The notes: a model not told the origin generated them from the letters alone. 64,000 nt of DNA from Rickettsiales bacterium (GCA_034111325.1 JAWUXM010000002.1:80774-144773), one strand, 5' to 3'; counted from the stretch's first letter, positions 2,162 to 45,291 are shown. Made by a program: numbers and translations.

Positions 2162-3553
2162 ATGATAATTACCAGTTTCTGCGTTTCTCTTTTTATTATC
2201 ATTCTAATAGGTGTTTCATCCTCCATAAAAAATCGTCATACTAGCACTGATTACTTCCTTGCTGGTCAGAGCCTAAAGCCTTGGTTGGTGTCTTTATCAG
2301 CAGTTGCTACTAATAGTAGTGGCTACATGTTTATAGGCATGATTGGCTATACTTACATGGTTGGCCTTTCCTCTATATGGCTCATGATCGGTTGGATTGG
2401 TGGTGACTTTTTATCATCCCTTTTCATTCATAAACACCTACGTGTAGCAACTGAGCGGGGGAAAGTGCTTAGCTTTGCTGGTGCCTTAAGTAACTGGCAT
2501 GGCAATAATTATCGAGTTTTACAATTCGTAGGCGGTTTAATCACTATAGCTTTTCTTGGTATATATGCCGCAGCGCAATTAAGTGCCGGCAGTAAAGCCC
2601 TACATGTATTGTTCGGGTGGGACTATGCAGTTGGAGCAATAATTGGCGCTATCATGGTAGCACTATACTGCGTTGCTGGGGGTATAAGAGCTTCTGTTTG
2701 GACAGATGTAGCACAATCTTTCATTATGATAATTGCTATGGCTGCATTGTGCGTTATGTCGATAGCCGAATTCCCGCATTTAACAGACTTTGTAGATAAA
2801 TTACACGATGTCTCTCCCAGCTATATGAGCCTTTTCCCTAAATCCTCTAACAGTATTGGTGGGCTGCTACTATTTATATTAGGGTGGGTGTTTGCCGGCA
2901 TAGGTGTAATTGGGCAACCACATATCATGGTAAGGTTTATGGCTATGAATCAGCCAAGTGATATCAAGCGAGTTCGTATTTACTATTATAGTTGGTATAG
3001 CTTGTTTTACCTTTTAACTATTGGCACAGGTTTCGCAGCACGTTTGCTTTTACCAGATATTAACAACTTTGATGCAGAATTAGCTTTGCCAACCTTGGCA
3101 CAAAATTTATTGCCGGAGATACTGGTAGGGTTGGTGTTAGCAGGGTTATTTGCAGCAACAATGTCCACTGCGGATTCTCAAATATTAAGTTGCTCAGCAG
3201 CGATTACACATGACCTCACTTTAGGCAAAAAGCTGCCTTACTTTGTCGCAAAGATAACCACGATTCTTGTCACCATAACAGCATTACTAATTGCTTTATT
3301 TGGTAGCAAAAGTGTGTTCTCCTTGGTGTTAATTGCATGGTCTGCTTTGGCAAGTTGCTTTGCACCATTATTAATTATCTATGCATTTGGTGGCAAGCCT
3401 TCCGAAAAACTAGCCCTGATGATGATTACCACTGCTATATCGACCATGTTTATTTGGCGTTATTTCAATTTAAACAACATTATGTATGAAGTAGCACCGG
3501 CTATGATAGTTGGGTTGTTAACTTATGCGCTAGGAACAGCCTTGAAAAAATAA
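2162..3553 (+). CDS. Sodium:solute symporter (SSS) family transporter, PutP-like
   Basis: Polytopic membrane protein. N-terminal YFLAGQSL..W..S..ATNSSGYMFIGMIGYTY is typical of the SSS family. Confidence 0.8.
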   Translation: MIITSFCVSLFIIILIGVSSSIKNRHTSTDYFLAGQSLKPWLVSLSAVATNSSGYMFIGMIGYTYMVGLSSIWLMIGWIGGDFLSSLFIHKHLRVATERGKVLSFAGALSNWHGNNYRVLQFVGGLITIAFLGIYAAAQLSAGSKALHVLFGWDYAVGAIIGAIMVALYCVAGGIRASVWTDVAQSFIMIIAMAALCVMSIAEFPHLTDFVDKLHDVSPSYMSLFPKSSNSIGGLLLFILGWVFAGIGVIGQPHIMVRFMAMNQPSDIKRVRIYYYSWYSLFYLLTIGTGFAARLLLPDINNFDAELALPTLAQNLLPEILVGLVLAGLFAATMSTADSQILSCSAAITHDLTLGKKLPYFVAKITTILVTITALLIALFGSKSVFSLVLIAWSALASCFAPLLIIYAFGGKPSEKLALMMITTAISTMFIWRYFNLNNIMYEVAPAMIVGLLTYALGTALKK

Positions 3554-3635
3554 AAGGGTGGGAGCCGAAGCTTCCACCCCCTTACGAGAGAGATATGAGA
3601 ATCCCTAGTGTAACACACCATAAACAACTATGCAA
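3545..3635 (-). ncRNA. Candidate small RNA gene, copy 1 (promoter + ~55-nt transcript + intrinsic terminator)
   Basis: On the minus strand: -35 TTGCAT (3635-3630), 17-nt spacer, -10 TACACT (3612-3607). The transcript reads GGGAUUCUCAUAUCUCUCUCGUAAG, followed by hairpin GGGUGGAAGC-UUCG-GCUCCCACCC and a UUUUAUUUUUU tail. About 100 bp is paralogous to 35164-35262. The hairpin could also terminate the upstream FMN-reductase gene. Confidence 0.4.
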
Positions 3636-3685
3636 CTCCTAATTGTACTATTTAACTAAAAATTCTAATAAAAGTTGTATATGCC

Positions 3686-4956: not shown

Positions 4957-6389
4957 TTGCTAAAAACTACTCCAATTAAAAAATGTGCAAGTAATGAGAT
5001 AATGATTACTGAAATAATGTTTAAAATCAACCCTGCGCGCATCATTTGCAGTACAGTTATGCGGTTACTTGCAAAAATAATAGCATTGGGCGGGGTGGCA
5101 ATTGGCATCATAAAAGCACAGCTTGCCGCTAAGGAGACAGGAATGGCCAAATATAATATATTGCTATCACTGCTTAGACTAATTGCTGCAACGACAGGCA
5201 AGAAAAGTGCAGTCAGTGCCATATTGCTCATTAGCTCGGTTAAGAATAAAGTTAGGGCAGTAACTAATATAATCATCAGTAACGGGCTAAAATTCCAATT
5301 GGAAATTGTCTGACCCAAATTGCTTATAAGCATTGTATTGCTTAGCATTGAAGCAATAGTTAGCCCTCCTCCGAAAAGTAGTATAAGACCCCAAGGGATG
5401 TTTTTGGCGCTTTGCCAATCTAAAGCAAATTTCTTTTTACTAAGGTCGATAGGTAGCATAAATAAAGCAATTGATGCAGCGATCGCAATGGAAGTATCGG
5501 ATAATTCACCAAGTGGCAGATTATAGGCATTAATCATAACATTAAATGGCGCTCGTAAAATCCACAATGATGCTGTAACCAAAAATACCGCAGTGACGAT
5601 TTTCTCAGCTTTTGAGAAATTACCTAATTTTTTAACTTCTTGGTGGATTATATCCGCCTGTAACGTTTTGATTTTATTTGGGAATAATATTTTTGTGAGC
5701 AATAGCCAGCAGAAAAACAGCATGCTTAATGCAAAGGGCAGCCCAACTATAAGCCATTTCGCAAAGCTGATACTGTAATTGTATTTCTCATACATAAACG
5801 CCACAAGAATTGCATTAGTCGGCGTGCCAATTAAAGTCGCTGTGCCGCCTATATTTGCTGCATAGGCAATAGAAAGCATCAAGGCTGTAGAAAAGGAAGT
5901 TTTATCATGACTAGGCAAGTTTTTAAGCACAGCCAAAGCAATAGGCAACATGATAACTGCAGTGGCAGTATTGCTAATCCACATGCTTAGAAAGGCAGTT
6001 GATACCATAAAGCCAGCAATGATGTGATTTGTATCCGTACCGATAAATTTGATTATATTAAAAGCGATCCGCTTATGCAAATTAGACTTCTGCATGGCAC
6101 TTGCGAGGAAGAAACCACCCATAAATAAAAATACTATAGGGTGAGCATAATGACTAGTAATGCTTTTAATGCTTTCTATGTTTGTCAGGGGAATTAAGGC
6201 AATTGGCAAAAGCGCCGTCATAGCCATAGGAACAATATCTGTAATCCACCAGCTAACCATCCAAGCAACTATGCCGATGATTATGACTTCCTGCTTAGGA
6301 AGGCCGAAGAAGGGCAGAATAAGTAGTGAGGCAATTAATAAAAAAGGGCCAATTAGTAAATATAGTAAATTTTTATACTTATCTAACAT
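4953..6389 (-). CDS. SLC13/DASS family anion:sodium symporter (permease)
   Basis: Polytopic protein with the duplicated hairpin motifs SNTATAVIMLPI and TPPNAI. It has a 4-nt overlap with pirin, consistent with an operon. Confidence 0.8.
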   Translation of the reverse strand: MLDKYKNLLYLLIGPFLLIASLLILPFFGLPKQEVIIIGIVAWMVSWWITDIVPMAMTALLPIALIPLTNIESIKSITSHYAHPIVFLFMGGFFLASAMQKSNLHKRIAFNIIKFIGTDTNHIIAGFMVSTAFLSMWISNTATAVIMLPIALAVLKNLPSHDKTSFSTALMLSIAYAANIGGTATLIGTPTNAILVAFMYEKYNYSISFAKWLIVGLPFALSMLFFCWLLLTKILFPNKIKTLQADIIHQEVKKLGNFSKAEKIVTAVFLVTASLWILRAPFNVMINAYNLPLGELSDTSIAIAASIALFMLPIDLSKKKFALDWQSAKNIPWGLILLFGGGLTIASMLSNTMLISNLGQTISNWNFSPLLMIILVTALTLFLTELMSNMALTALFLPVVAAISLSSDSNILYLAIPVSLAASCAFMMPIATPPNAIIFASNRITVLQMMRAGLILNIISVIIISLLAHFLIGVVFSK

Positions 6390-11240: not shown

Positions 11241-11350
11241 TGCGTGTTTTTGTGATGATTTTTATTAAATGTTCTGCCTAAGCAAGGGATCGTATACTTC
11301 ATACGTGACCGAAGCGCAGGTAGGTTATTTGATAAAAAGGGCGCAAAAGC
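11241..11350. repeat. Palindromic repeat element, family C (inverted orientation relative to 17996-18103)
   Basis: Its reverse complement, GCTTTTGCGCCCTTTTTATCAAATAACCT...CGTATGAAGTATACG...GGCAGAACATTTAATAAAAATCATCACAAAAA, aligns end to end with 17996-18103. Confidence 0.7.
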
Positions 11351-17995: not shown

Positions 17996-18103
17996 CTTTT
18001 TGCGCCCTTTTTAGCAAATAACCTTCTTTCACTCGAGTCACGTACGAAGCTGTACGCTAACTCGTTCAAGCAGGACATTTACTAAAAATCATCACAAAAA
18101 TTC
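17996..18103. repeat. Palindromic repeat element, family C
   Basis: It starts 1-2 nt after the stop codon. It contains the nested hairpin CGAGT-CA-CGTAC-GAAGCT-GTACG-CTA-ACTCG. Its termini are shared with 11241-11350. Confidence 0.7.
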
Positions 18104-25674: not shown

Positions 25675-25788
25675 CACGTCACTCCCTGAATTCTGAAAGA
25701 ATTCAAGGGGAGCCTAGAAGCAAAGAGCGAGATAATTGTTTGTGGCTGTGGATAACCCTAGAATTCCTATGGAATTCAGGGCATTATG
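25675..25788. repeat. Two-hairpin MITE/RPE-like element, family A
   Basis: CACGTCACTCCCTGAATTCTGAAAGAATTCAAGGGGA ... CCCTAGAATTCCTATGGAATTCAGGGC. It aligns over its whole length with the reverse complement of 28519-28630. Confidence 0.75.
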
Positions 25789-27210: not shown

Positions 27211-27218
27211 TTATAAAA

Positions 27219-27234
27219 TGTTTCACGTGAAACA
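27219..27234. promoter_or_regulatory. parS: parS site, perfect TGTTTCACGTGAAACA
   Basis: Exact consensus palindrome, 9 nt after the HAD hydrolase stop. The flanking sequence is related to the parS modules at 28402 and 28706. Confidence 0.8.
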
Positions 27235-27433
27235 TTGACGAGATCATGCGGAAACCGCAGACCCTTCATTTTTTAGAGCTTGTTTTTAACCTACAATGTC
27301 TAGCAAGCCACAAAACTGGCTCGCCCTCCCTCAATTGACTTTTACTACTTCTCCATTTTGCCTTTGCAAAAAACATTTAATAGTGCGTTAATGGATATAA
27401 AAGTAATATAACCAACCGAAAAACTGTAATATC

Positions 27434-28393
27434 ATGAGTAAAATCGAGATTTATACTAATAAAAACAATGAGGCTTCAATTGAAGTCCAGTTTGAAAACG
27501 AAACTGTTTGGCTTACACAAAGTCAGATAAGTGACCTTTTTGGAAGAGACAGAACTGTAATTTCAAGGCATTTAAATAATGTATTTAAAGAAGGTGAGCT
27601 TGAGAAAAAAAGCAATATGCAAAAAATGCATATTGCAAATTCTGACAAGCCCGTCGAGCTTTATAACCTTGATGTGATTATCTCAGTTGGCTATCGAGTC
27701 AAATCAAAACAAGGCACGCAATTTAGAATTTGGGCGACTAATCGCTTAAAAGAATATTTAGTTCAAGGCTATTCCATCAACGAAGAGAGGCTCAACCAAT
27801 TACAAAAAACCATTAAACTTATTGGTAAAAATATTGATGTAGAGAATGTTGATTTGGGGGAAGCAAAGGGTATGCTTAATATAATCAAAAACTACAATGA
27901 GAGCTTTGTTTTGCTTAATCAATTTGATAGCAATAGCTTAGAAACAAAGCATCTTAATAGAAACATCACTTACGCAATAAAGCATGATGAAGCTTTGCTA
28001 GCAATAACCGAACTCAAAAACCAACTCATTAAGAAAAAAGAAGCAACCGAGTTGTTTGGTAATCGAAAAGACGATTCTTTTCAGGGCACTTTGGGTAATA
28101 TTTTACAAAGTTTCGGCGGAGAATATCTATATCCCTCAATTGAAGAACAGGCGGCAAATTTGCTTTATTTAACCATTAAAAACCACTCGTTTTCTGACGG
28201 CAATAAACGCATCGGCGCCTTTATGTTTATTTGGTTTTTAGAGAAAAACAAACACTCCTTTAAAAAAACAGGCGAGCTCAAGATAAATGATAATGCCTTG
28301 GTGGCTCTTGCTTTATTGGTTGCGAGCAGCAACCCAAGTGACAAAGATTTAATGGTAAAATTAATAATTAATTTAATCAAAGACCAAAAATAG
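27434..28393 (+). CDS. RhuM-N-terminal domain fused to Doc-type Fic domain (RhuM/Fic/DOC family protein)
   Basis: The N-terminal half, VWLTQSQISDLFGRDRTVISRHLNNVF...YNLDVIISVGYRVKSKQGTQFRIWATNRLKEYLVQGY, matches the RhuM family. The C-terminal half has the Fic/Doc core HSFSDGNKRIGAF (HxFxDGNKR, Doc-like NKR). Confidence 0.8.
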   Translation: MSKIEIYTNKNNEASIEVQFENETVWLTQSQISDLFGRDRTVISRHLNNVFKEGELEKKSNMQKMHIANSDKPVELYNLDVIISVGYRVKSKQGTQFRIWATNRLKEYLVQGYSINEERLNQLQKTIKLIGKNIDVENVDLGEAKGMLNIIKNYNESFVLLNQFDSNSLETKHLNRNITYAIKHDEALLAITELKNQLIKKKEATELFGNRKDDSFQGTLGNILQSFGGEYLYPSIEEQAANLLYLTIKNHSFSDGNKRIGAFMFIWFLEKNKHSFKKTGELKINDNALVALALLVASSNPSDKDLMVKLIINLIKDQK

Positions 28394-28401
28394 AGATGGG
28401 A

Positions 28402-28479
28402 AACCATAATGTTTCACGTGAAACATTCACAGGATCCCGCAGATAACTAAGCTTTATGGTTTTTTTGAGCGTCAAATTT
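28402..28479. repeat. parS-carrying ~78-bp direct repeat, copy A
   Basis: AACCATAATGTTTCACGTGAAACATTCACAGGATCCCGCAGATAACTAAGCTTTATGGTTTTTTTGAGCGTCAAATTT is near-identical to 28706-28782. Confidence 0.85.
28410..28425. promoter_or_regulatory. parS: parS site, perfect TGTTTCACGTGAAACA
   Basis: Exact consensus, 17 nt after the Fic/Doc gene stop. Confidence 0.8.
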
Positions 28480-28518: not shown

Positions 28519-28630
28519 CATAGCCTGAATTGCGTAGCAATTCTAAGGCTATCCAGGAGCTACAAACAATTATTGCGCCCTTTACTCCTAGACTCCCTTA
28601 GAATTCCTGCGGAATTCAGGGAGTGACGCG
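28519..28630. repeat. Two-hairpin MITE/RPE-like element, family A (inverted copy)
   Basis: Its reverse complement, CGCGTCACTCCCTGAATTCCGCAGGAATTCTAAGGGAG...ATAATTGTTTGTAGCTCCTGGATAGCCTTAGAATTGCTACGCAATTCAGGCTATG, aligns with 25675-25788. Confidence 0.75.
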
Positions 28631-28705: not shown

Positions 28706-28782
28706 AACCATAATGTTTCACGTGAAACATTGACAGGATCCCGCAGATAACTAAGCTTTGTGTTTTTTTGAGCGTCAATTTT
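28706..28782. repeat. parS-carrying ~78-bp direct repeat, copy B
   Basis: AACCATAATGTTTCACGTGAAACATTGACAGGATCCCGCAGATAACTAAGCTTTGTGTTTTTTTGAGCGTCAATTT. Confidence 0.85.
28714..28729. promoter_or_regulatory. parS: parS site, perfect TGTTTCACGTGAAACA
   Basis: Exact consensus within direct-repeat copy B. Confidence 0.8.
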
Positions 28783-31242: not shown

Positions 31243-31319
31243 TGGTTGCGGGGGCAGGATTTGAACCTACGGCCTTCAGGTTATGAGCCTGACGAGCTAC
31301 CAGACTGCTCCACCCCGCG
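31243..31319 (-). tRNA. Initiator tRNA-fMet (anticodon CAT), CCA encoded
   Basis: The reverse complement reads CGCGGGGTGGAGCAGTCTGGTAGCTCGTCAGGCTCATAACCTGAAGGCCGTAGGTTCAAATCCTGCCCCCGCAACCA. It is 77 nt and near-identical to E. coli tRNA-fMet. It has the C1:A72 mismatch hallmark. The anticodon stem is UCAGG/CCUGA, giving two rather than three G:C pairs next to the loop. Confidence 0.95.
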
Positions 31320-32733: not shown

Positions 32734-33365
32734 TGCAAAACCCCTCCCCTGATCTAGAAAAAATCTATATAAATCTGTGTAACATCACGAATGTTTCACG
32801 TGAAACATTCGTGAGATTGCAGCAATACGTTGACTTCCTTATAAAAAACAACGCTAAAATAAATTTAATTGGCAAGAATACCACAGCAGATATTTGGCAT
32901 CGCCACATATTCGATTCAGCACAAATTCTACAACATCTACCAAAAGACACAAAACGAGTTATAGATATAGGAACTGGCGCTGGTTTGCCAGGAATTATCC
33001 TATCTATTCTTGGTATTGAGGAAGTTGATTTAGTTGAATCAATTACTAAAAAAGCTAATTTTTTACGTGAAGCTGCACAATTCTCGCCTAATAAAATTAA
33101 TGTTTTTAACGATAGGGCTGAGGATTTGATAGCATGGGAAAGCGATGTGGTCACCTCTCGTGCCTGCGCACCGCTTGATAAATTACTTGGTTTTACTGAA
33201 AAATTGATTGCAAAAAGCAAAATTTGCGTATTCCTTAAAGGTAGAAATGTAGAGGAAGAAATTTTGCAGGCTAAAAATACATGGTCTTTTGATTATGATT
33301 TAGCCAAAAGCCTTACTGCGGAAGATTCTTACATCATTAAAATAAACAACGTAAAACATTTATAG
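32733..33365 (+). CDS. rsmG: 16S rRNA (guanine527-N7)-methyltransferase RsmG (GidB)
   Basis: NVSRETFVRLQQYVDFLIKNNAKINL N-terminus and SAM motif DIGTGAGLPGI. It lies immediately upstream of parAB. Confidence 0.9.
   Translation: MQNPSPDLEKIYINLCNITNVSRETFVRLQQYVDFLIKNNAKINLIGKNTTADIWHRHIFDSAQILQHLPKDTKRVIDIGTGAGLPGIILSILGIEEVDLVESITKKANFLREAAQFSPNKINVFNDRAEDLIAWESDVVTSRACAPLDKLLGFTEKLIAKSKICVFLKGRNVEEEILQAKNTWSFDYDLAKSLTAEDSYIIKINNVKHL
32792..32807. promoter_or_regulatory. parS: Intragenic parS site (perfect) inside rsmG
   Basis: TGTTTCACGTGAAACA is embedded in a 28-bp perfect palindrome at 32786-32813. It encodes the conserved VSRET of RsmG. Confidence 0.8.
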
Positions 33366-35028: not shown

Positions 35029-35036
35029 TTTGGGAA

Positions 35037-35052
35037 TGTTTCACGTGGAACA
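35037..35052. promoter_or_regulatory. parS: parS site TGTTTCACGTGGAACA (one position off perfect palindrome)
   Basis: It lies 9 nt after the parB stop. The sequence equals the reverse complement of the classic B. subtilis parS TGTTCCACGTGAAACA. Confidence 0.8.
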
Positions 35053-35171
35053 TTGCTGTAAAACCCTAGTTTTCTGGGATCCTCTTTAATTTTAGAGCTC
35101 TAAAAGATTATTGTTTCACAAATACACACCCTGAATAATCACCTGATGCTAGAATAAAATTCAATTAGTGG

Positions 35172-35262
35172 TTGCATTGCTGTTTGCCCTATGTTATAAT
35201 GGGGATTCTCATATCTCTCTTGTAAGGGGGTGGAAGCTTCGGCTCCCACCCTTTTATTTTTT
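35172..35262 (+). ncRNA. Candidate small RNA gene, copy 2 (sigma70-like promoter + ~55-nt transcript + intrinsic terminator)
   Basis: -35 TTGCAT (35172-35177), exact 17-nt spacer, -10 TATAAT (35195-35200). The transcript reads GGGGAUUCUCAUAUCUCUCUUGUAAG. The hairpin is GGGUGGAAGC-UUCG-GCUCCCACCC (35228-35251) with tail UUUUAUUUUUU (35252-35262). Confidence 0.5.
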
Positions 35263-35303
35263 CTAGCACCAAAAGAATCATCACTCCGCTCCGCAAAAAA
35301 GGC

Positions 35304-35450
35304 GTCATCCTGAACTTGTTTTAGGATCTACTGAATTAGCCAATAGTTTAATAAGTATAGCTTTTATCATTAACAGCATGATGTTATTACAAATTTCTTA
35401 CCCCTTATTTTTGTTTGGCTACGCAGATCCTGAAACAAGTTCAGGATGAC
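35304..35450. repeat. MITE-like unit bounded by 26-bp inverted repeats
   Basis: GTCATCCTGAACTTGTTTTAGGATCT (35304-35329) matches the reverse complement of AGATCCTGAAACAAGTTCAGGATGAC (35425-35450) at 25/26 positions. Each arm is itself a small hairpin (ATCCTGAA/TTCAGGAT). Confidence 0.65.
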
Positions 35451-35481: not shown

Positions 35482-36606
35482 TTATTCCTGCGCCGGCAGG
35501 AATCCATATGCTTTTATCATTTTTGCGAGCCTAATAATATCTTTTCGCTTATGCTGCGCAGAGAAGCTAATCCGCAAGCGGGCAGTGTTTTTCGGCACGG
35601 TGGGCGGCCTAATTGCAGCTAAAAGGAAACCTTCTTTTTTAAACATTTCGCTAAACTCTAACAAGCGTGCATCATCGCCAATAATAATATTAACGATCTG
35701 GCTCTCAGGCTCGGCTAAACCTGCTAACTTACAGAATAATTTAGCATTTACTAATGGCTTGCGACAAAGTGCTTTGTTGCTCTCTATAATCTTTAATGAT
35801 TGCACCATCGCCGCTAAAATCGGATATGGTAAAGCAGTTGAGTAAATCAATGATTTTGCCTTATTGGTTAGATAATCAATAAGCTGCTTATCCCCTGCTA
35901 CATAGCCGCCATACAGCCCTGCGGCTTTTGATAACGTTCCCATTTGTACTAAATTTGCTGATTTATGTTTTTGCTCGATAACGCCTAAACCATGCGCATC
36001 ATCAGTTAAAAGCATGCAATCATGCTTCTCTGCTAGTGTTAATAACTCCCCTACTCGCCCTAAATCACCATCCATTGAAAAAATTGTCTCCGTAATGAGC
36101 AAACAATTATCATATGATTTACGATGTTTTTTAAGCAAAGCTTGGCATTCCGCAACGTCATTATGGGCAAAACGTAAGACCTTGGCACGTGATAATAGCG
36201 CGCCATCGATTGATGATGAGTGAATTAATTTATCAGCAATGATTAGATCCTTACGACCAACAAGGGCTGAAATCGTTCCGATTGCTGTTAAATAGCCACT
36301 ACCAAAAATTAAAGCTTTGTCAGTGTTTTTAATTTTTGCAATTAGCTTTTCTGCTTGATCGTAATATTTATTATTCCCCGTGACTAAACGTGAAGCAGCA
36401 CTCCCAACACCATATCGCTTAATTGCCTTAATAGCAGCTTTTTTAACGGCTTTATTTTGTGCCAACCCCAAATAATCATTACACGCAAAAGAGACGTATT
36501 TATGGCTCTTTTCGCATAGATAGCGACCTTTGCGTTCATAGCTTATCAATTTTCGATAAAGATTTAGTTCTTTTATCTGTTTGATTTTTAATTCAAAACT
36601 TGTCAT
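35482..36606 (-). CDS. bioF: 8-amino-7-oxononanoate synthase
   Basis: Class II aminotransferase fold with PLP-lysine context GTLSKAAG. It is divergent from bioB. Confidence 0.85.
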   Translation of the reverse strand: MTSFELKIKQIKELNLYRKLISYERKGRYLCEKSHKYVSFACNDYLGLAQNKAVKKAAIKAIKRYGVGSAASRLVTGNNKYYDQAEKLIAKIKNTDKALIFGSGYLTAIGTISALVGRKDLIIADKLIHSSSIDGALLSRAKVLRFAHNDVAECQALLKKHRKSYDNCLLITETIFSMDGDLGRVGELLTLAEKHDCMLLTDDAHGLGVIEQKHKSANLVQMGTLSKAAGLYGGYVAGDKQLIDYLTNKAKSLIYSTALPYPILAAMVQSLKIIESNKALCRKPLVNAKLFCKLAGLAEPESQIVNIIIGDDARLLEFSEMFKKEGFLLAAIRPPTVPKNTARLRISFSAQHKRKDIIRLAKMIKAYGFLPAQE

Positions 36607-36658
36607 AAAATCCCGCGAGTAAAATATTTACGCGTGACATTATAAGGAATAACAGAAA

Positions 36659-37639
36659 ATGCAAAATCTCAGTACAGCCGACAAAACTATAAAGGAAGAT
36701 CTTTACTCGCCAAAGCAATTAAAAGAGATACTCGCCTTGTTTGAACTGCCGTTTAATGATTTATTATTCAAAGCGCAGCAAATACATCGTGAAAATTTTA
36801 AACCTAATGAAGTACAGGTTTCTAGCCTTTTAAGCATCAAAACCGCCTCTTGCCCTGAGGATTGTAAATATTGTCCACAATCGGCTCATAATAAAACTGC
36901 TATTGTAAAAGCAGATTTTATTGATGTCAGCGAAGTGGTCAAAAATGCACAAGCTGCCAAGGAACAGGGTGCAACACGCTTTTGCATGGGGGCTGCTTGG
37001 CGCCAACTACATGATCGTGACCTTGATAAGGTTTGTGATATGGTCAAAGCAGTAAAAGATCTAGGACTGGAGAGTTGCGTTACGTTAGGCATGTTAGATA
37101 AAGCACAAAGCACAAAACTCAAAGAAGCAGGGCTGGATTATTACAATCACAATCTCGATACTTCTCGTGAATATTACAAAGAAATCATTACTACACGTAC
37201 TTATGATGACCGTTTAAATACACTAAAAAACATCAAAGAAGCAGGGCTAAAAACCTGCTCTGGCGGTATTGTAGGCATGGGCGAGACACGAATTGATCGT
37301 GCTAAAATGCTTGCGACGTTAGCAGGGTTAGATAAGCAGCCAGAAAGCGTCCCTATTAATCGCTTAGTGAAAGTTCCCGGTACGCCACTTGCAAATGTCG
37401 ATGATATTGATGATTTCGAATTCATTAGAACAATAGCTATTGCACGAATTATATTAAAAAAATCATATGTGAGATTATCCGCTGGACGTGAAGAAATGAG
37501 CGATGAAACCCAGGCTCTCTGCTTCTTTGCGGGGGCTAACTCAATTTTCTATGGTGAGAAATTATTAACCCAATCTAATCCTTCTGTAAAAAAAGATTTG
37601 CATTTATTAAAAAAGCTTGGCATTAAACTAGAAGCGTAA
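36659..37639 (+). CDS. bioB: Biotin synthase
   Basis: Radical-SAM cluster motif [11 protein letters not shown], plus FCMGAAWR and YNHNLDTS. Confidence 0.95.
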
Positions 37640-37726
37640 TGCAATATTACTGCTAATAGCAAAAACCCCCTTTGCTTTTTTAATATTGTGATCTTGCATT
37701 ACGCAATCTTACGAGAGAGATATGAC

Positions 37727-38281
37727 ATGTTAAATATACCCTATTCACCAGCCAGAGTGGCAAATAGCTTTTTAGCCTTGGCTAACAAGAATAATGCCAC
37801 TATTACGCAAATGCAGATCCAAAGTCTGATCTACCTTGCGCAAGGCTGGTGTCTAGCTCTCAAAAACAAGCCTTTAATCAACGAAGCCTTGCTTGCTTGG
37901 CGCTTCGGCACAATCTCCACGTCAATTTTTCATGAGTTCAAACATTTTGGCAACGGCGCCATCAAATCACCAATGTTAGAGCTTCTCGTTGAAAAGGGTA
38001 ATGCACGCTGGCATCATACGACAATATCAGACACTGACAAATTTACTATGAACCTTCTTGCAGAAATTTGGGAATCTTACAGCGACTATCAGACTGACGA
38101 ACTAACCCAGATGACCTGCTGCGCTAAAAGCCCTTGGCAAAAAATATATAAAATAGGAGAGAAAGAAGGCATTGTTTTTGGCAAAGAAGTTCCCAATTGT
38201 GATATAAAAGAGTTCTTTCTAAGTAACCTCGCAACGAAAACCCCGCAAATTCCTCTGTTGGAGAATTCTCCTGCAACTTAA
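37727..38281 (+). CDS. Panacea-domain (DUF4065, SocA/PanA-like) protein, orphan
   Basis: ITQMQIQSLIYLAQGWCLALKNKPLINEALLAWRFGTISTSIFHEFKHFG matches the DUF4065 core pattern (LQKLLYxAQGW...PLFxExxxAWxxGPVxxxxYxxFKxFG). The likely start is ATG 37727; the track ORF starts at GTG 37688. Confidence 0.7.
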   Translation: MLNIPYSPARVANSFLALANKNNATITQMQIQSLIYLAQGWCLALKNKPLINEALLAWRFGTISTSIFHEFKHFGNGAIKSPMLELLVEKGNARWHHTTISDTDKFTMNLLAEIWESYSDYQTDELTQMTCCAKSPWQKIYKIGEKEGIVFGKEVPNCDIKEFFLSNLATKTPQIPLLENSPAT

Positions 38282-43749: not shown

Positions 43750-44376
43750 ATGTCACACGAAAGACATAAATTATCCACATCAGATTTCCTTCACCATGTT
43801 GTTAGAGATGGCAATTCGGACCGCATTACTCTTATTGACTTGATGCATTCTATCCATGAACGGGGGTTTGGCCTATTAACCTTAATTTTCTCGCTTCCTT
43901 TAGCGATACCTATGCCTTATATTCCAGGGCTTACTACTATACTTGCTGCACCATTATTGCTTTTTTCCATACAAATGATGATTGGCTCAAATGCGCCTTG
44001 GTTGCCTAAATGGTTAGCTCATAAATCAATACGCAGACAAACTTTAGCTAAAATCATTGAAAAAGCTTCGCCAATTCTCAGGCGTTTTGAAAAACTCCTC
44101 CGTTTACGTTTAGACTTTATTAGCTCTAATTGGGGTCATAAAGTCATTGGTTTTTTTATGATAATTTTTACGATCTCAATTGCGATACCTCTTCCACTTA
44201 CCAATCTATTGCCCGCGATTGGCATATTGCTTATATCACTAGGCTTGCTAAGTAGGGACGGGATCATTATAATTTGCGGGATTTTAATCGGGGTTATCGG
44301 CGTAGTGTTTACTGGCGCAGTTTTACTCCTTGGCAAAAAAATCGTTTTTGGTATAATTCACTCAATATTTAATTAA
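43750..44376 (+). CDS. Exopolysaccharide biosynthesis protein ExoD family (membrane)
   Basis: ITLIDLMHSIHERGFGLLTLIFSLPLAIPMP is typical of the ExoD family N-terminus. Multiple TM segments follow. Confidence 0.7.
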   Translation: MSHERHKLSTSDFLHHVVRDGNSDRITLIDLMHSIHERGFGLLTLIFSLPLAIPMPYIPGLTTILAAPLLLFSIQMMIGSNAPWLPKWLAHKSIRRQTLAKIIEKASPILRRFEKLLRLRLDFISSNWGHKVIGFFMIIFTISIAIPLPLTNLLPAIGILLISLGLLSRDGIIIICGILIGVIGVVFTGAVLLLGKKIVFGIIHSIFN

Positions 44377-44382
44377 AGAGAT

Positions 44383-45291
44383 ATGCATATTGAAAAAAAA
44401 GAGCGCTTAGCAAAGCCTGATTGGATAAGAGTCAAAGCGCCAAACTCCAAAAGCTTTGGCGATACGAAAGATCTTATCAAGAGCCTAGGACTTAATACAG
44501 TCTGCGAAGAGGCCGCCTGTCCAAATATTGGCGAATGTTGGAGCAAAAAACATGTTACAGTGATGATTCTTGGTTCAGTTTGCACAAGAGCTTGCGCCTT
44601 CTGCAACATCAAAACTGGTACGCCCGATTTACTTGATCCACATGAACCAGAAAATCTTGCTAAAGCAGTAAAAGGCCTTGGTCTTGAACATATGGTAATT
44701 ACTTCTGTTGACCGTGATGATTTGCCTGATGGTGGCGCTGAGCATTTCGCACAATGTATTACAAATATTCGTCAAACCTCGCCCAAAACAACGATTGAAG
44801 TTCTCACGCCTGATTTCTTACGGAAAGGCGATTCTTATCTAAAAGTCGTAGAAGCAAAACCAGATGTATTTAATCATAATATTGAAACTGTGCCAAGCCT
44901 TTATAATAAAATCCGTCCTGGTGCACGTTATTTTAATTCGCTAAATTTACTAAAAAGAGTCAAAGAAGCAGACCCGACAATTTTTACTAAATCAGGCATT
45001 ATGGTAGGACTTGGCGAAACAAAAGATGAAGTCTTGCAATTAATGGATGATTTACGCGCTGCAGAGGTTGATTTCATGACAATAGGTCAATATCTTCGCC
45101 CAACCCCAAAACATGCTAAAATTGATCGCTTTGTGAATCCTGAAGAGTTTAAATATTATGAAAGAGTGGCAAAAGCTAAAGGCTTCCTCATGGTTTCTAG
45201 CTCACCACTAACTCGCTCTTCTTACCATGCGGGTGATGATTTTGCAATTATGCGTAAAAACAGAGAGGAACAGTTACAAAAGGCTAATTAA
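44383..45291 (+). CDS. lipA: Lipoyl synthase
   Basis: [13 protein letters not shown] and the radical-SAM motif CTRACAFC. Confidence 0.95.

Follow-up and report, generated by a model that had tools for sequence, protein, structure and literature searches.

A first-pass annotation of the 64-kb stretch of DNA analysed here (the window) pointed to two inverted units, each with a promoter, a short transcribed part and a hairpin terminator, and read them as a duplicated small-RNA gene. Are these units genes for a regulatory RNA, or are they repeats or terminators without such a function, and which mRNA would a small RNA (sRNA) of this kind control? We propose, with a probability of roughly 0.6, that they represent a family of trans-encoded antisense sRNA, present in two copies, which occludes the ribosome-binding site of a Panacea-domain gene in the same window. 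The features on which this proposal is built are listed in Table 1.

Table 1. Positions and strands of the predicted promoters, RNAs, seed and target in the window, with the basis of each assignment.
Feature	Position	Strand	Description and basis
Promoter, copy A	35162..35201	+	CAATTAG, TTGCAT, 17-nt spacer, TG, TATAAT; sequence and alignment of the copies
Promoter, copy B	3606..3645	-	CAATTAG, TTGCAT, 17-nt spacer, TG, TACACT; alignment of the copies
Predicted sRNA, copy A	35205..35262	+	~52-58 nt; folding and exact two-copy occurrence
Predicted sRNA, copy B	3545..3602	-	as copy A except for C in place of U (complement of G3586)
Seed, copy A	35209..35226	+	UCAUAUCUCUCUUGUAAG; pairs with 37708-37725, including one G.U pair at 35221
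Predicted target site	37708..37725	+	CUUACGAGAGAGAUAUGA of the Panacea-domain mRNA; best non-self duplex of the window scan
Predicted target gene, SocA/Panacea-domain (PanA-like), 184 aa	37727..38281	+	Pfam, PHROG, JGI call

The two copies and their surroundings

Reading of the sequence and a repeat search in the window both confirmed two inverted units at the places where they had been described. They form an inverted repeat pair of 105 nt with 87% identity, consisting of copy A (35162-35266, plus strand) and copy B (3541-3645, minus strand). With up to three mismatches permitted, the window contains exactly two occurrences of the 32-nt 5' part and two of the 24-nt hairpin, compared with 0.00 expected from shuffled sequences. 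The annotation had recommended a search for further paralogues; nhmmer and blastn-short returned copies A and B and no others in the window and an additional 7.8 kb of the contig on its upstream side (L009). The homology between the copies ends abruptly on both sides, and the flanks are not duplicated.

Both copies sit between convergent genes. Copy A is preceded by parB and copy B by an FMN reductase gene, each co-directional with its unit. On the other side, copy A is followed by the 3' end of bioF and copy B by the 3' end of a sodium:solute symporter gene, each on the opposite strand. Since no co-directional gene lies 3' of either terminator, the units are not leaders, and a cis-acting leader or attenuator was rejected. 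The earlier statement that neither copy overlaps an ORF has to be restricted to copy A, because the last three codons of the symporter ORF (2162-3553), which is convergent, share positions 3545-3553 with the U-tail of copy B. No strong terminator was called between the upstream stop codon and either unit; a weak hairpin of 5 pairs (35065-35078) precedes copy A.

Divergence is distributed unevenly over the units. The promoter part differs between the copies at 12 of 40 positions, the predicted transcript at 1 of 61 (Fisher p = 4e-5). Unchanged in the promoter part are the blocks CAATTAG, GTTGCAT and TGTTT, the TG of an extended -10 element, positions T1, A2, A4 and T6 of the -10 element and the 17-nt spacing. 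The 26 nt directly 5' of the hairpin (35202-35227) are kept at 25 of 26 positions. All sequence-level tests that we ran, including this sparing of the transcript, support the reading as a duplicated small-RNA gene, and it is very likely, judged from the sequence, that copies A and B are paralogous small-RNA genes that are independently transcribed. Their likeness could have been kept by gene conversion rather than by selection. A peptide-coding unit was rejected. In copy A an 8-codon ORF opens with an ATG that is located within the -10 element and corresponds to CTA in copy B, and the mini-ORFs on the reverse strand differ between the copies (7 vs 15 codons).

Promoters

In copy A the CAATTAG block (35162-35168) is followed by the -35 element TTGCAT (35172-35177), the TG of the extended -10 element (35192-35193) and the -10 element TATAAT (35195-35200); the 17-nt spacer contains the conserved TGTTT. 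Copy B shows CAATTAG at 3645-3639, TTGCAT at 3635-3630 and, after a 17-nt spacer, TACACT at 3612-3607, in agreement with the conserved -35 element and the TACACT that had been reported for this copy. Both -10 elements are preceded by TGn, which had previously gone without mention, and followed by GGGA. A GGGA directly after the -10 element is an optimal discriminator for region 1.2 of sigma70. These four bases may therefore have been conserved as part of the promoter and not of the transcript.

The description as a near-consensus sigma70 promoter is appropriate for the -10 element of copy A (TATAAT) only, whereas the -35 element agrees with TTGACA at 3 of 6 positions. For this reason a consensus scanner calls no promoter at either copy. 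The pattern CAATTAGNNGTTGCATNNNTGTTT was found in the window at copies A and B only. A common transcription-factor site that also occurs elsewhere was rejected on the same grounds, since CAATTAG..GTTGCAT..TGTTT is confined to the two copies. The unequal quality of the -10 elements suggests, as far as can be judged from these hexamers, that the promoters differ in strength. As is usual for a trans-acting sRNA, each unit has a predicted promoter of its own, namely TTGCAT-17 nt-TGtTATAAT in copy A and TTGCAT-17 nt-TGtTACACT in copy B.

Predicted RNA

On the assumption that transcription begins ~5-9 nt after the -10 element, the start site of copy A would be located at 35205-35209. The unpaired 5' seed AUUCUCAUAUCUCUCUUGUAAG of this copy is followed by a hairpin core (35228-35251) and a U-tail (35252-35262); in copy B the hairpin core is found at 3579-3556 and the U-tail at 3555-3545. 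The hairpin reads GGGUGGAAGC-UUCG-GCUCCCACCC with one A.C mismatch and is followed by UUUUAUUUUUU. With a GC-rich stem of 9-12 bp, a UUCG loop and the U-tail, it has the features of a rho-independent terminator. RNAs of 58-61 nt fold with -21.6 to -25.5 kcal/mol (z = -4.3 to -4.5 compared with shuffled sequences), the weakest of these values being -21.6 kcal/mol with z = -4.3; the UUCG-tetraloop hairpin with U-tail that had been noted is present in the fold. The A.C mismatch in the stem is apparently the reason why the consensus scanner calls the terminator of neither copy. According to the folding the 5' end of the predicted sRNA is CU-rich and unpaired over 17-20 nt, with AUUCUCAUAUCUCUCUU as the 17-nt segment.

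An Rfam search, which had been suggested as a check, gave no family match for the units at either gathering or permissive thresholds. With Rfam 15 at gathering thresholds, the sole match in the whole window is a tRNA (31246-31319). At E<=10 the region 35100-35330 yields LhrC with 21.2 bits (threshold 110), sbrA with 17.9 bits (45) and SorY with 16.1 bits (111). All of these sub-threshold scores come from the terminator, and those of LhrC and SorY do not indicate membership. A motif search in the six-frame translation of the 64-kb window found no Hfq; the sRNA has a U-tail and a terminator.

The arrangement of the units could also be explained by duplicated intrinsic terminators of the parB and FMN-reductase transcripts, with fortuitous promoter hexamers and, at most, a processed 3'-UTR fragment as product. 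Each copy indeed follows a co-directional gene between convergent genes, nothing stronger than the weak hairpin ahead of copy A separates it from the upstream stop codon, and the poor match of the -35 element leaves the scanner without a promoter call. For a terminator, however, hairpin and U-tail suffice, yet the 26 nt further 5' are kept almost completely, and TTGCAT, the 17-nt spacing, TGn and TAnAnT are kept while neighbouring bases have diverged. In addition, the extra conserved segment is exactly the part that is complementary to the ribosome-binding site of the Panacea-domain gene, as described below. We consider duplicated terminators rather unlikely, and a fragment derived from the 3'-UTR would still carry the same seed.

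Predicted target site

The CU-rich 5' part of the RNA had been compared to the anti-Shine-Dalgarno seeds of trans-acting sRNAs, and a prediction of targets had been recommended. This was performed as a duplex scan of the 26-nt 5' segment of the sRNA against both strands of the whole window. One site stands out. The best non-self duplex is formed at 37708-37725 with -28.3 to -29.1 kcal/mol; the next one reaches -22.6 kcal/mol, and the background is -7.8 +/- 3.1 kcal/mol. The site, CTTACGAGAGAGATATGA, is the exact 18-nt reverse complement of the copy B seed. Copy B can therefore form 18 Watson-Crick pairs, copy A 17 and one G.U pair, and the single difference between the two transcripts preserves the pairing (C-G to U.G). 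For the complete sRNA and mRNA, cofolding leaves a net gain of -16 kcal/mol (copy A) or -18 kcal/mol (copy B) after both partners have been unfolded.

The position of the site is that expected of an anti-Shine-Dalgarno seed. It corresponds to -19 to -2 of the ATG at 37727, covers the Shine-Dalgarno sequence GAGAGAG (37713-37719) and ends 1 nt before the start codon. It is antisense to the seed on the transcribed strand at a distance of 2.4 kb from copy A, so that the unpaired seed is complementary to the initiation region of an mRNA encoded elsewhere. When the window was searched with the 18-mer at up to three mismatches, this site was the sole extra match, with 0.12 matches expected per shuffled window. 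None of 5000 shuffled seeds had an 18-nt complement in the window, the longest being 16 nt. Because of repeats, about 0.5% of random 26-mers taken from the window match at least 18 nt elsewhere. The 18-mer may also be shared by ancestry and have no function.

A third, degenerate copy of the unit at the target was rejected. At this place nhmmer aligns model positions 46-65 only (20 nt), and since the homology is limited to these seed positions the target is not such a copy. Around it the promoter scan calls nothing but a 9/12 site, which is on the minus strand; the single hairpin there that resembles a terminator (37767-37741) precedes the seed-like sequence instead of following it.

The units could also be a small dispersed repeat or the remnant of a mobile element, with the 18-nt match as a third fragment and no regulatory function. 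The window contains 64-nt repeats that bear parS and REP/MITE-like palindromes at 25677/28558 and 35304/35425 (see below), and the rate of matches among random 26-mers points in the same direction. A dispersed terminator-carrying repeat had also been named as the finding that would overturn the small-RNA reading. However, just two full copies are present in 72 kb, the terminator sequence is never found there apart from seed and promoter, and on reading the sequence neither copy has terminal inverted repeats or target-site duplications at the borders of the homology; a MITE- or REP-type repeat was rejected for these reasons. The divergence is not uniform, but as expected of a gene with a promoter. 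Furthermore, the third match would have to be restricted to the seed, antisense and located on a ribosome-binding site, which are three independent coincidences. A dispersed repeat is hence quite improbable.

A CU-rich seed is able to pair with many Shine-Dalgarno-like sequences, and two gene copies are typical of sRNAs that control regulons. The RNA could accordingly be a genuine sRNA that acts as a global regulator of many GA-rich targets, for which the Panacea-domain gene is incidental or minor. Two further sequences are in line with this. At the lipA start codon, AGAGATATG (44377-44385) is a 9-nt complement of the seed, and CUUGUACGAGGGAAGAUAUAGAGA at 5480-5509 (minus strand) of locus L009, ~2.3 kb ahead of the window start, pairs with the seed in an interrupted duplex of -27.3 kcal/mol (duplexfold), nearly as strong as that at the Panacea-domain gene. 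The lipA match, however, is at chance level, with about 5 matches of seed 9-mers seen in the window and roughly 10 expected. The L009 duplex is located inside a GNAT/GrpB coding sequence (~codon 47) and not at a ribosome-binding site; it may be due to chance or represent a second target. No other initiation region in the window scores near the Panacea-domain site, and 18 contiguous Watson-Crick pairs go far beyond what seed-type pairing needs and are typical of dedicated antisense pairs. We assign a rather low probability to global regulation as the main role and prefer the dedicated antisense sRNA, although other and possibly more important targets may exist outside the ~72 kb examined. The region 44330-44385 also contains an extended -10 promoter of lipA, TTGGCA-N14-TGgTATAAT.

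The Panacea-domain gene

The 184-aa protein encoded behind the site matches Pfam PF13274 (SocA_Panacea; E=1.8e-11) and phrog_1281 (E=6e-31). Its gene is preceded by bioB on the same strand with a gap of 87 bp and faces gltX, which is convergent. The start codon is called differently by JGI (ATG 37727, 184 aa) and NCBI (GTG 37688, 197 aa). We favour ATG 37727, because the PHROG profile alignment on the 197-aa version starts exactly at the Met of 37727 and no Shine-Dalgarno-like purine run was seen before GTG 37688 when the sequence was read. With the GTG start, the sRNA site would fall at codons 7-13 and not on the ribosome-binding site.

No toxin domain was detected in the protein with Pfam, PADLOC or PHROGs, and no toxin gene is adjacent, i.e. 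within the ~100 bp or less of a two-gene PanAT locus. The family signature GPV reads GTI (WRFGTIS, residues 58-64); GPV is important for toxin neutralisation in Panacea-domain proteins (PMC8832971). Shared 5-residue words revealed no relatives among 5.8 billion proteins, and there was no sequence match in the PDB. No consensus promoter was found between bioB and the Panacea-domain gene, and the bioB terminator is weak (6-bp AT-rich stem, ~37658-37680). In the divergent intergenic region of bioF and bioB (36606-36659), an imperfect palindrome, TCCCGCGAGTAAAATATTTACGCGTGACA, is located between TATAAT-like elements and may be the operator of a biotin regulator.

Proposed mechanism

From the features described above, we propose that each sRNA gene would be transcribed from its own sigma70-type extended -10 promoter up to the strong intrinsic terminator. 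The predicted product would expose its unpaired, CU-rich 5' end in front of a single GC-rich UUCG hairpin with U-tail. This 5' end could then form the 18-nt duplex with the Panacea-domain mRNA, over the Shine-Dalgarno sequence. The pairing would prevent the 30S subunit from binding and thereby repress translation, after which the duplex may be cleaved; for this part of the model we rely on the analogy with sRNAs that occlude ribosome-binding sites and with trans-encoded type I antitoxin RNAs. The sRNA pair probably switches off translation of the Panacea-domain gene. With no clear promoter behind bioB and a weak terminator at its end, the Panacea-domain gene may be transcribed by read-through from bioB, in which case the sRNA would selectively silence the distal cistron of that transcript. 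The hairpins of the two units probably serve as terminators for parB and the FMN reductase gene, too.

Comparison with known systems

In IstR-1/tisB, OhsC/shoB, OrzO/zorO and RalA/ralR of E. coli, the RNA measures ~60-85 nt, is transcribed from a promoter of its own and ends at an intrinsic terminator. These RNAs contain a perfect complement of 16-21 nt to the 5' region of one mRNA encoded nearby, the translation of which is blocked. The RNA described here likewise is short, has a predicted promoter of its own and a terminator, and shows a perfect complement of 18 nt over a ribosome-binding site, from which a block of translation would be expected. There is neither a sequence nor an Rfam relationship to IstR-1, OhsC, OrzO or RalA. 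In contrast to type I systems, of which RalR/RalA is one (PMC8832971), the partner is a protein of 184 aa with an antitoxin (Panacea) domain, rather than a small hydrophobic or enzymatic toxin. Moreover, the sRNA genes neither overlap the partner gene nor lie directly beside it: the partner gene is 2.4 kb from copy A, from which bioF and bioB separate it, and 34 kb from copy B.

As a pair of paralogues with conserved seed and terminator and diverged promoters, the units also resemble AbcR1/2 and CcsR1-4 of Alphaproteobacteria, LhrC1-5 of Listeria, OmrA/B and PrrF1/2. A pyrimidine-rich unpaired region directed against Shine-Dalgarno regions and a terminator hairpin with U-tail are common to these sRNAs and our RNA. 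The latter is shorter, however, possesses a single hairpin and would pair over 18 nt with one target instead of 7-12 nt. By analogy, its working mode would most resemble type I antitoxin RNAs and multicopy sRNAs with CU-rich seeds. With 3'-UTR sRNAs of the DapZ/MicL type it has in common a terminator shared with the upstream mRNA and a likely independent promoter; that promoter is intergenic, after the stop codon, and not inside the upstream coding sequence.

The predicted target shares the Panacea domain PF13274 with PanA/PanT and SocA/SocB. Unlike in PanA/PanT, bioB and gltX take the place of an adjacent toxin gene, and GTI that of GPV. Panacea-domain proteins neutralise many types of toxin, SocA being a proteolytic adaptor, and about half of them are encoded outside two-gene loci (PMC8832971). 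A full-text literature search returned no account of a Panacea-domain gene under the control of an sRNA.

It is tempting to combine the sRNA pair and the orphan Panacea-domain gene into an undescribed hybrid RNA-protein circuit of toxin-antitoxin type, but we regard such a circuit, in either of two versions, as speculative and unlikely. In one version the antisense RNA could be an 'anti-antitoxin' and determine how much of a PanA/SocA-like neutraliser or protease adaptor is made. The toxin partner could then be encoded elsewhere, for example as the RhuM-Fic protein (27434-28393); Fic/Doc toxins are known partners of PanA (PMC8832971). In the other version the divergent Panacea protein, with GTI for GPV, could itself inhibit growth, with the RNA as a type I-style antitoxin of which two copies could be kept as insurance.

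If confirmed, the units would add a new family of sRNAs, found in an alphaproteobacterial lineage that is uncultured, deep-branching and AT-rich and has MAGs of Rickettsiales as its closest named matches. To our knowledge, almost no sRNA with an assigned target has been described in this part of the tree. The 18 bp over the ribosome-binding site of one gene are an unusually explicit and testable prediction. We know of no earlier indication that any Panacea-domain (PanA/SocA-like) gene is controlled by RNA, and such antisense control, if confirmed, would link RNA-based with protein-based toxin-antitoxin logic. Apart from the link to Panacea, the sRNA would be a regulator of a common and well-known type.

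Host and relatives

The window belongs to contig Ga0455689_028910 (113 kb) of JGI metagenome 3300041951, and its proteins are also encoded on an NCBI contig of 154 kb. It has a GC content of 38%. The best ParB relative is 48% identical and the best TypA relatives are 72-73% identical, the named ones among the latter being MAGs of a 'Rickettsiales bacterium' and an 'Alphaproteobacteria bacterium'. Exact matches of the seed in genome contigs (3) and metagenome contigs (4) are unrelated coding or chance sequences; these collections are without a close relative of the host. In viral contigs the 18-mer has 6 matches, 5 of which are in homologous contigs (apparently a conserved coding stretch) and 1 is unrelated, and the unit terminator has 0. 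The loci of two relatives, L010 (50% GC) and L011, contain no seed match, lack the element and show no synteny downstream of the query gene. A ParE-like gene is found near typA in L010, and a short distance ahead of the window (L009 3419-3949) there is a toxin-antitoxin pair of the relB / yafQ(parE) type.

Other repeats in the window

A parS-type palindrome, AATGTTTCACGTGAAACATT, is present in six copies (2061-2088, 27217-27244, 28408-28435, 28712-28739, 32790-32817 and 35035-35062), which cluster around gidB-parA-parB and are presumably origin-proximal partition sites. The last of them lies 110 nt upstream of sRNA copy A. Directly downstream of this sRNA copy there is a REP/MITE-like inverted repeat of 26 nt (35304-35329 / 35425-35450) with 96% identity and a spacer of 95 nt.

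A 64-nt direct repeat (27211-27274, 28402-28465 and 28706-28769) combines a parS site with GGATCCCGCAGATAACTAAGCTTT...TTTTTT. Two of its copies are 95% identical, the third is weaker, and they bracket the RhuM-Fic gene. A REP/MITE-like inverted pair of 71 nt (25677-25747 / 28558-28628, 83%) is built on GTCACTCCCTGAATTC...GAATTCAGGGAG. Finally, inverted repeats of ~100 nt with 81-83% identity (11247-11348 / 17998-18100) flank a segment of 6.7 kb, possibly as the ends of an element that has been inserted or can invert.
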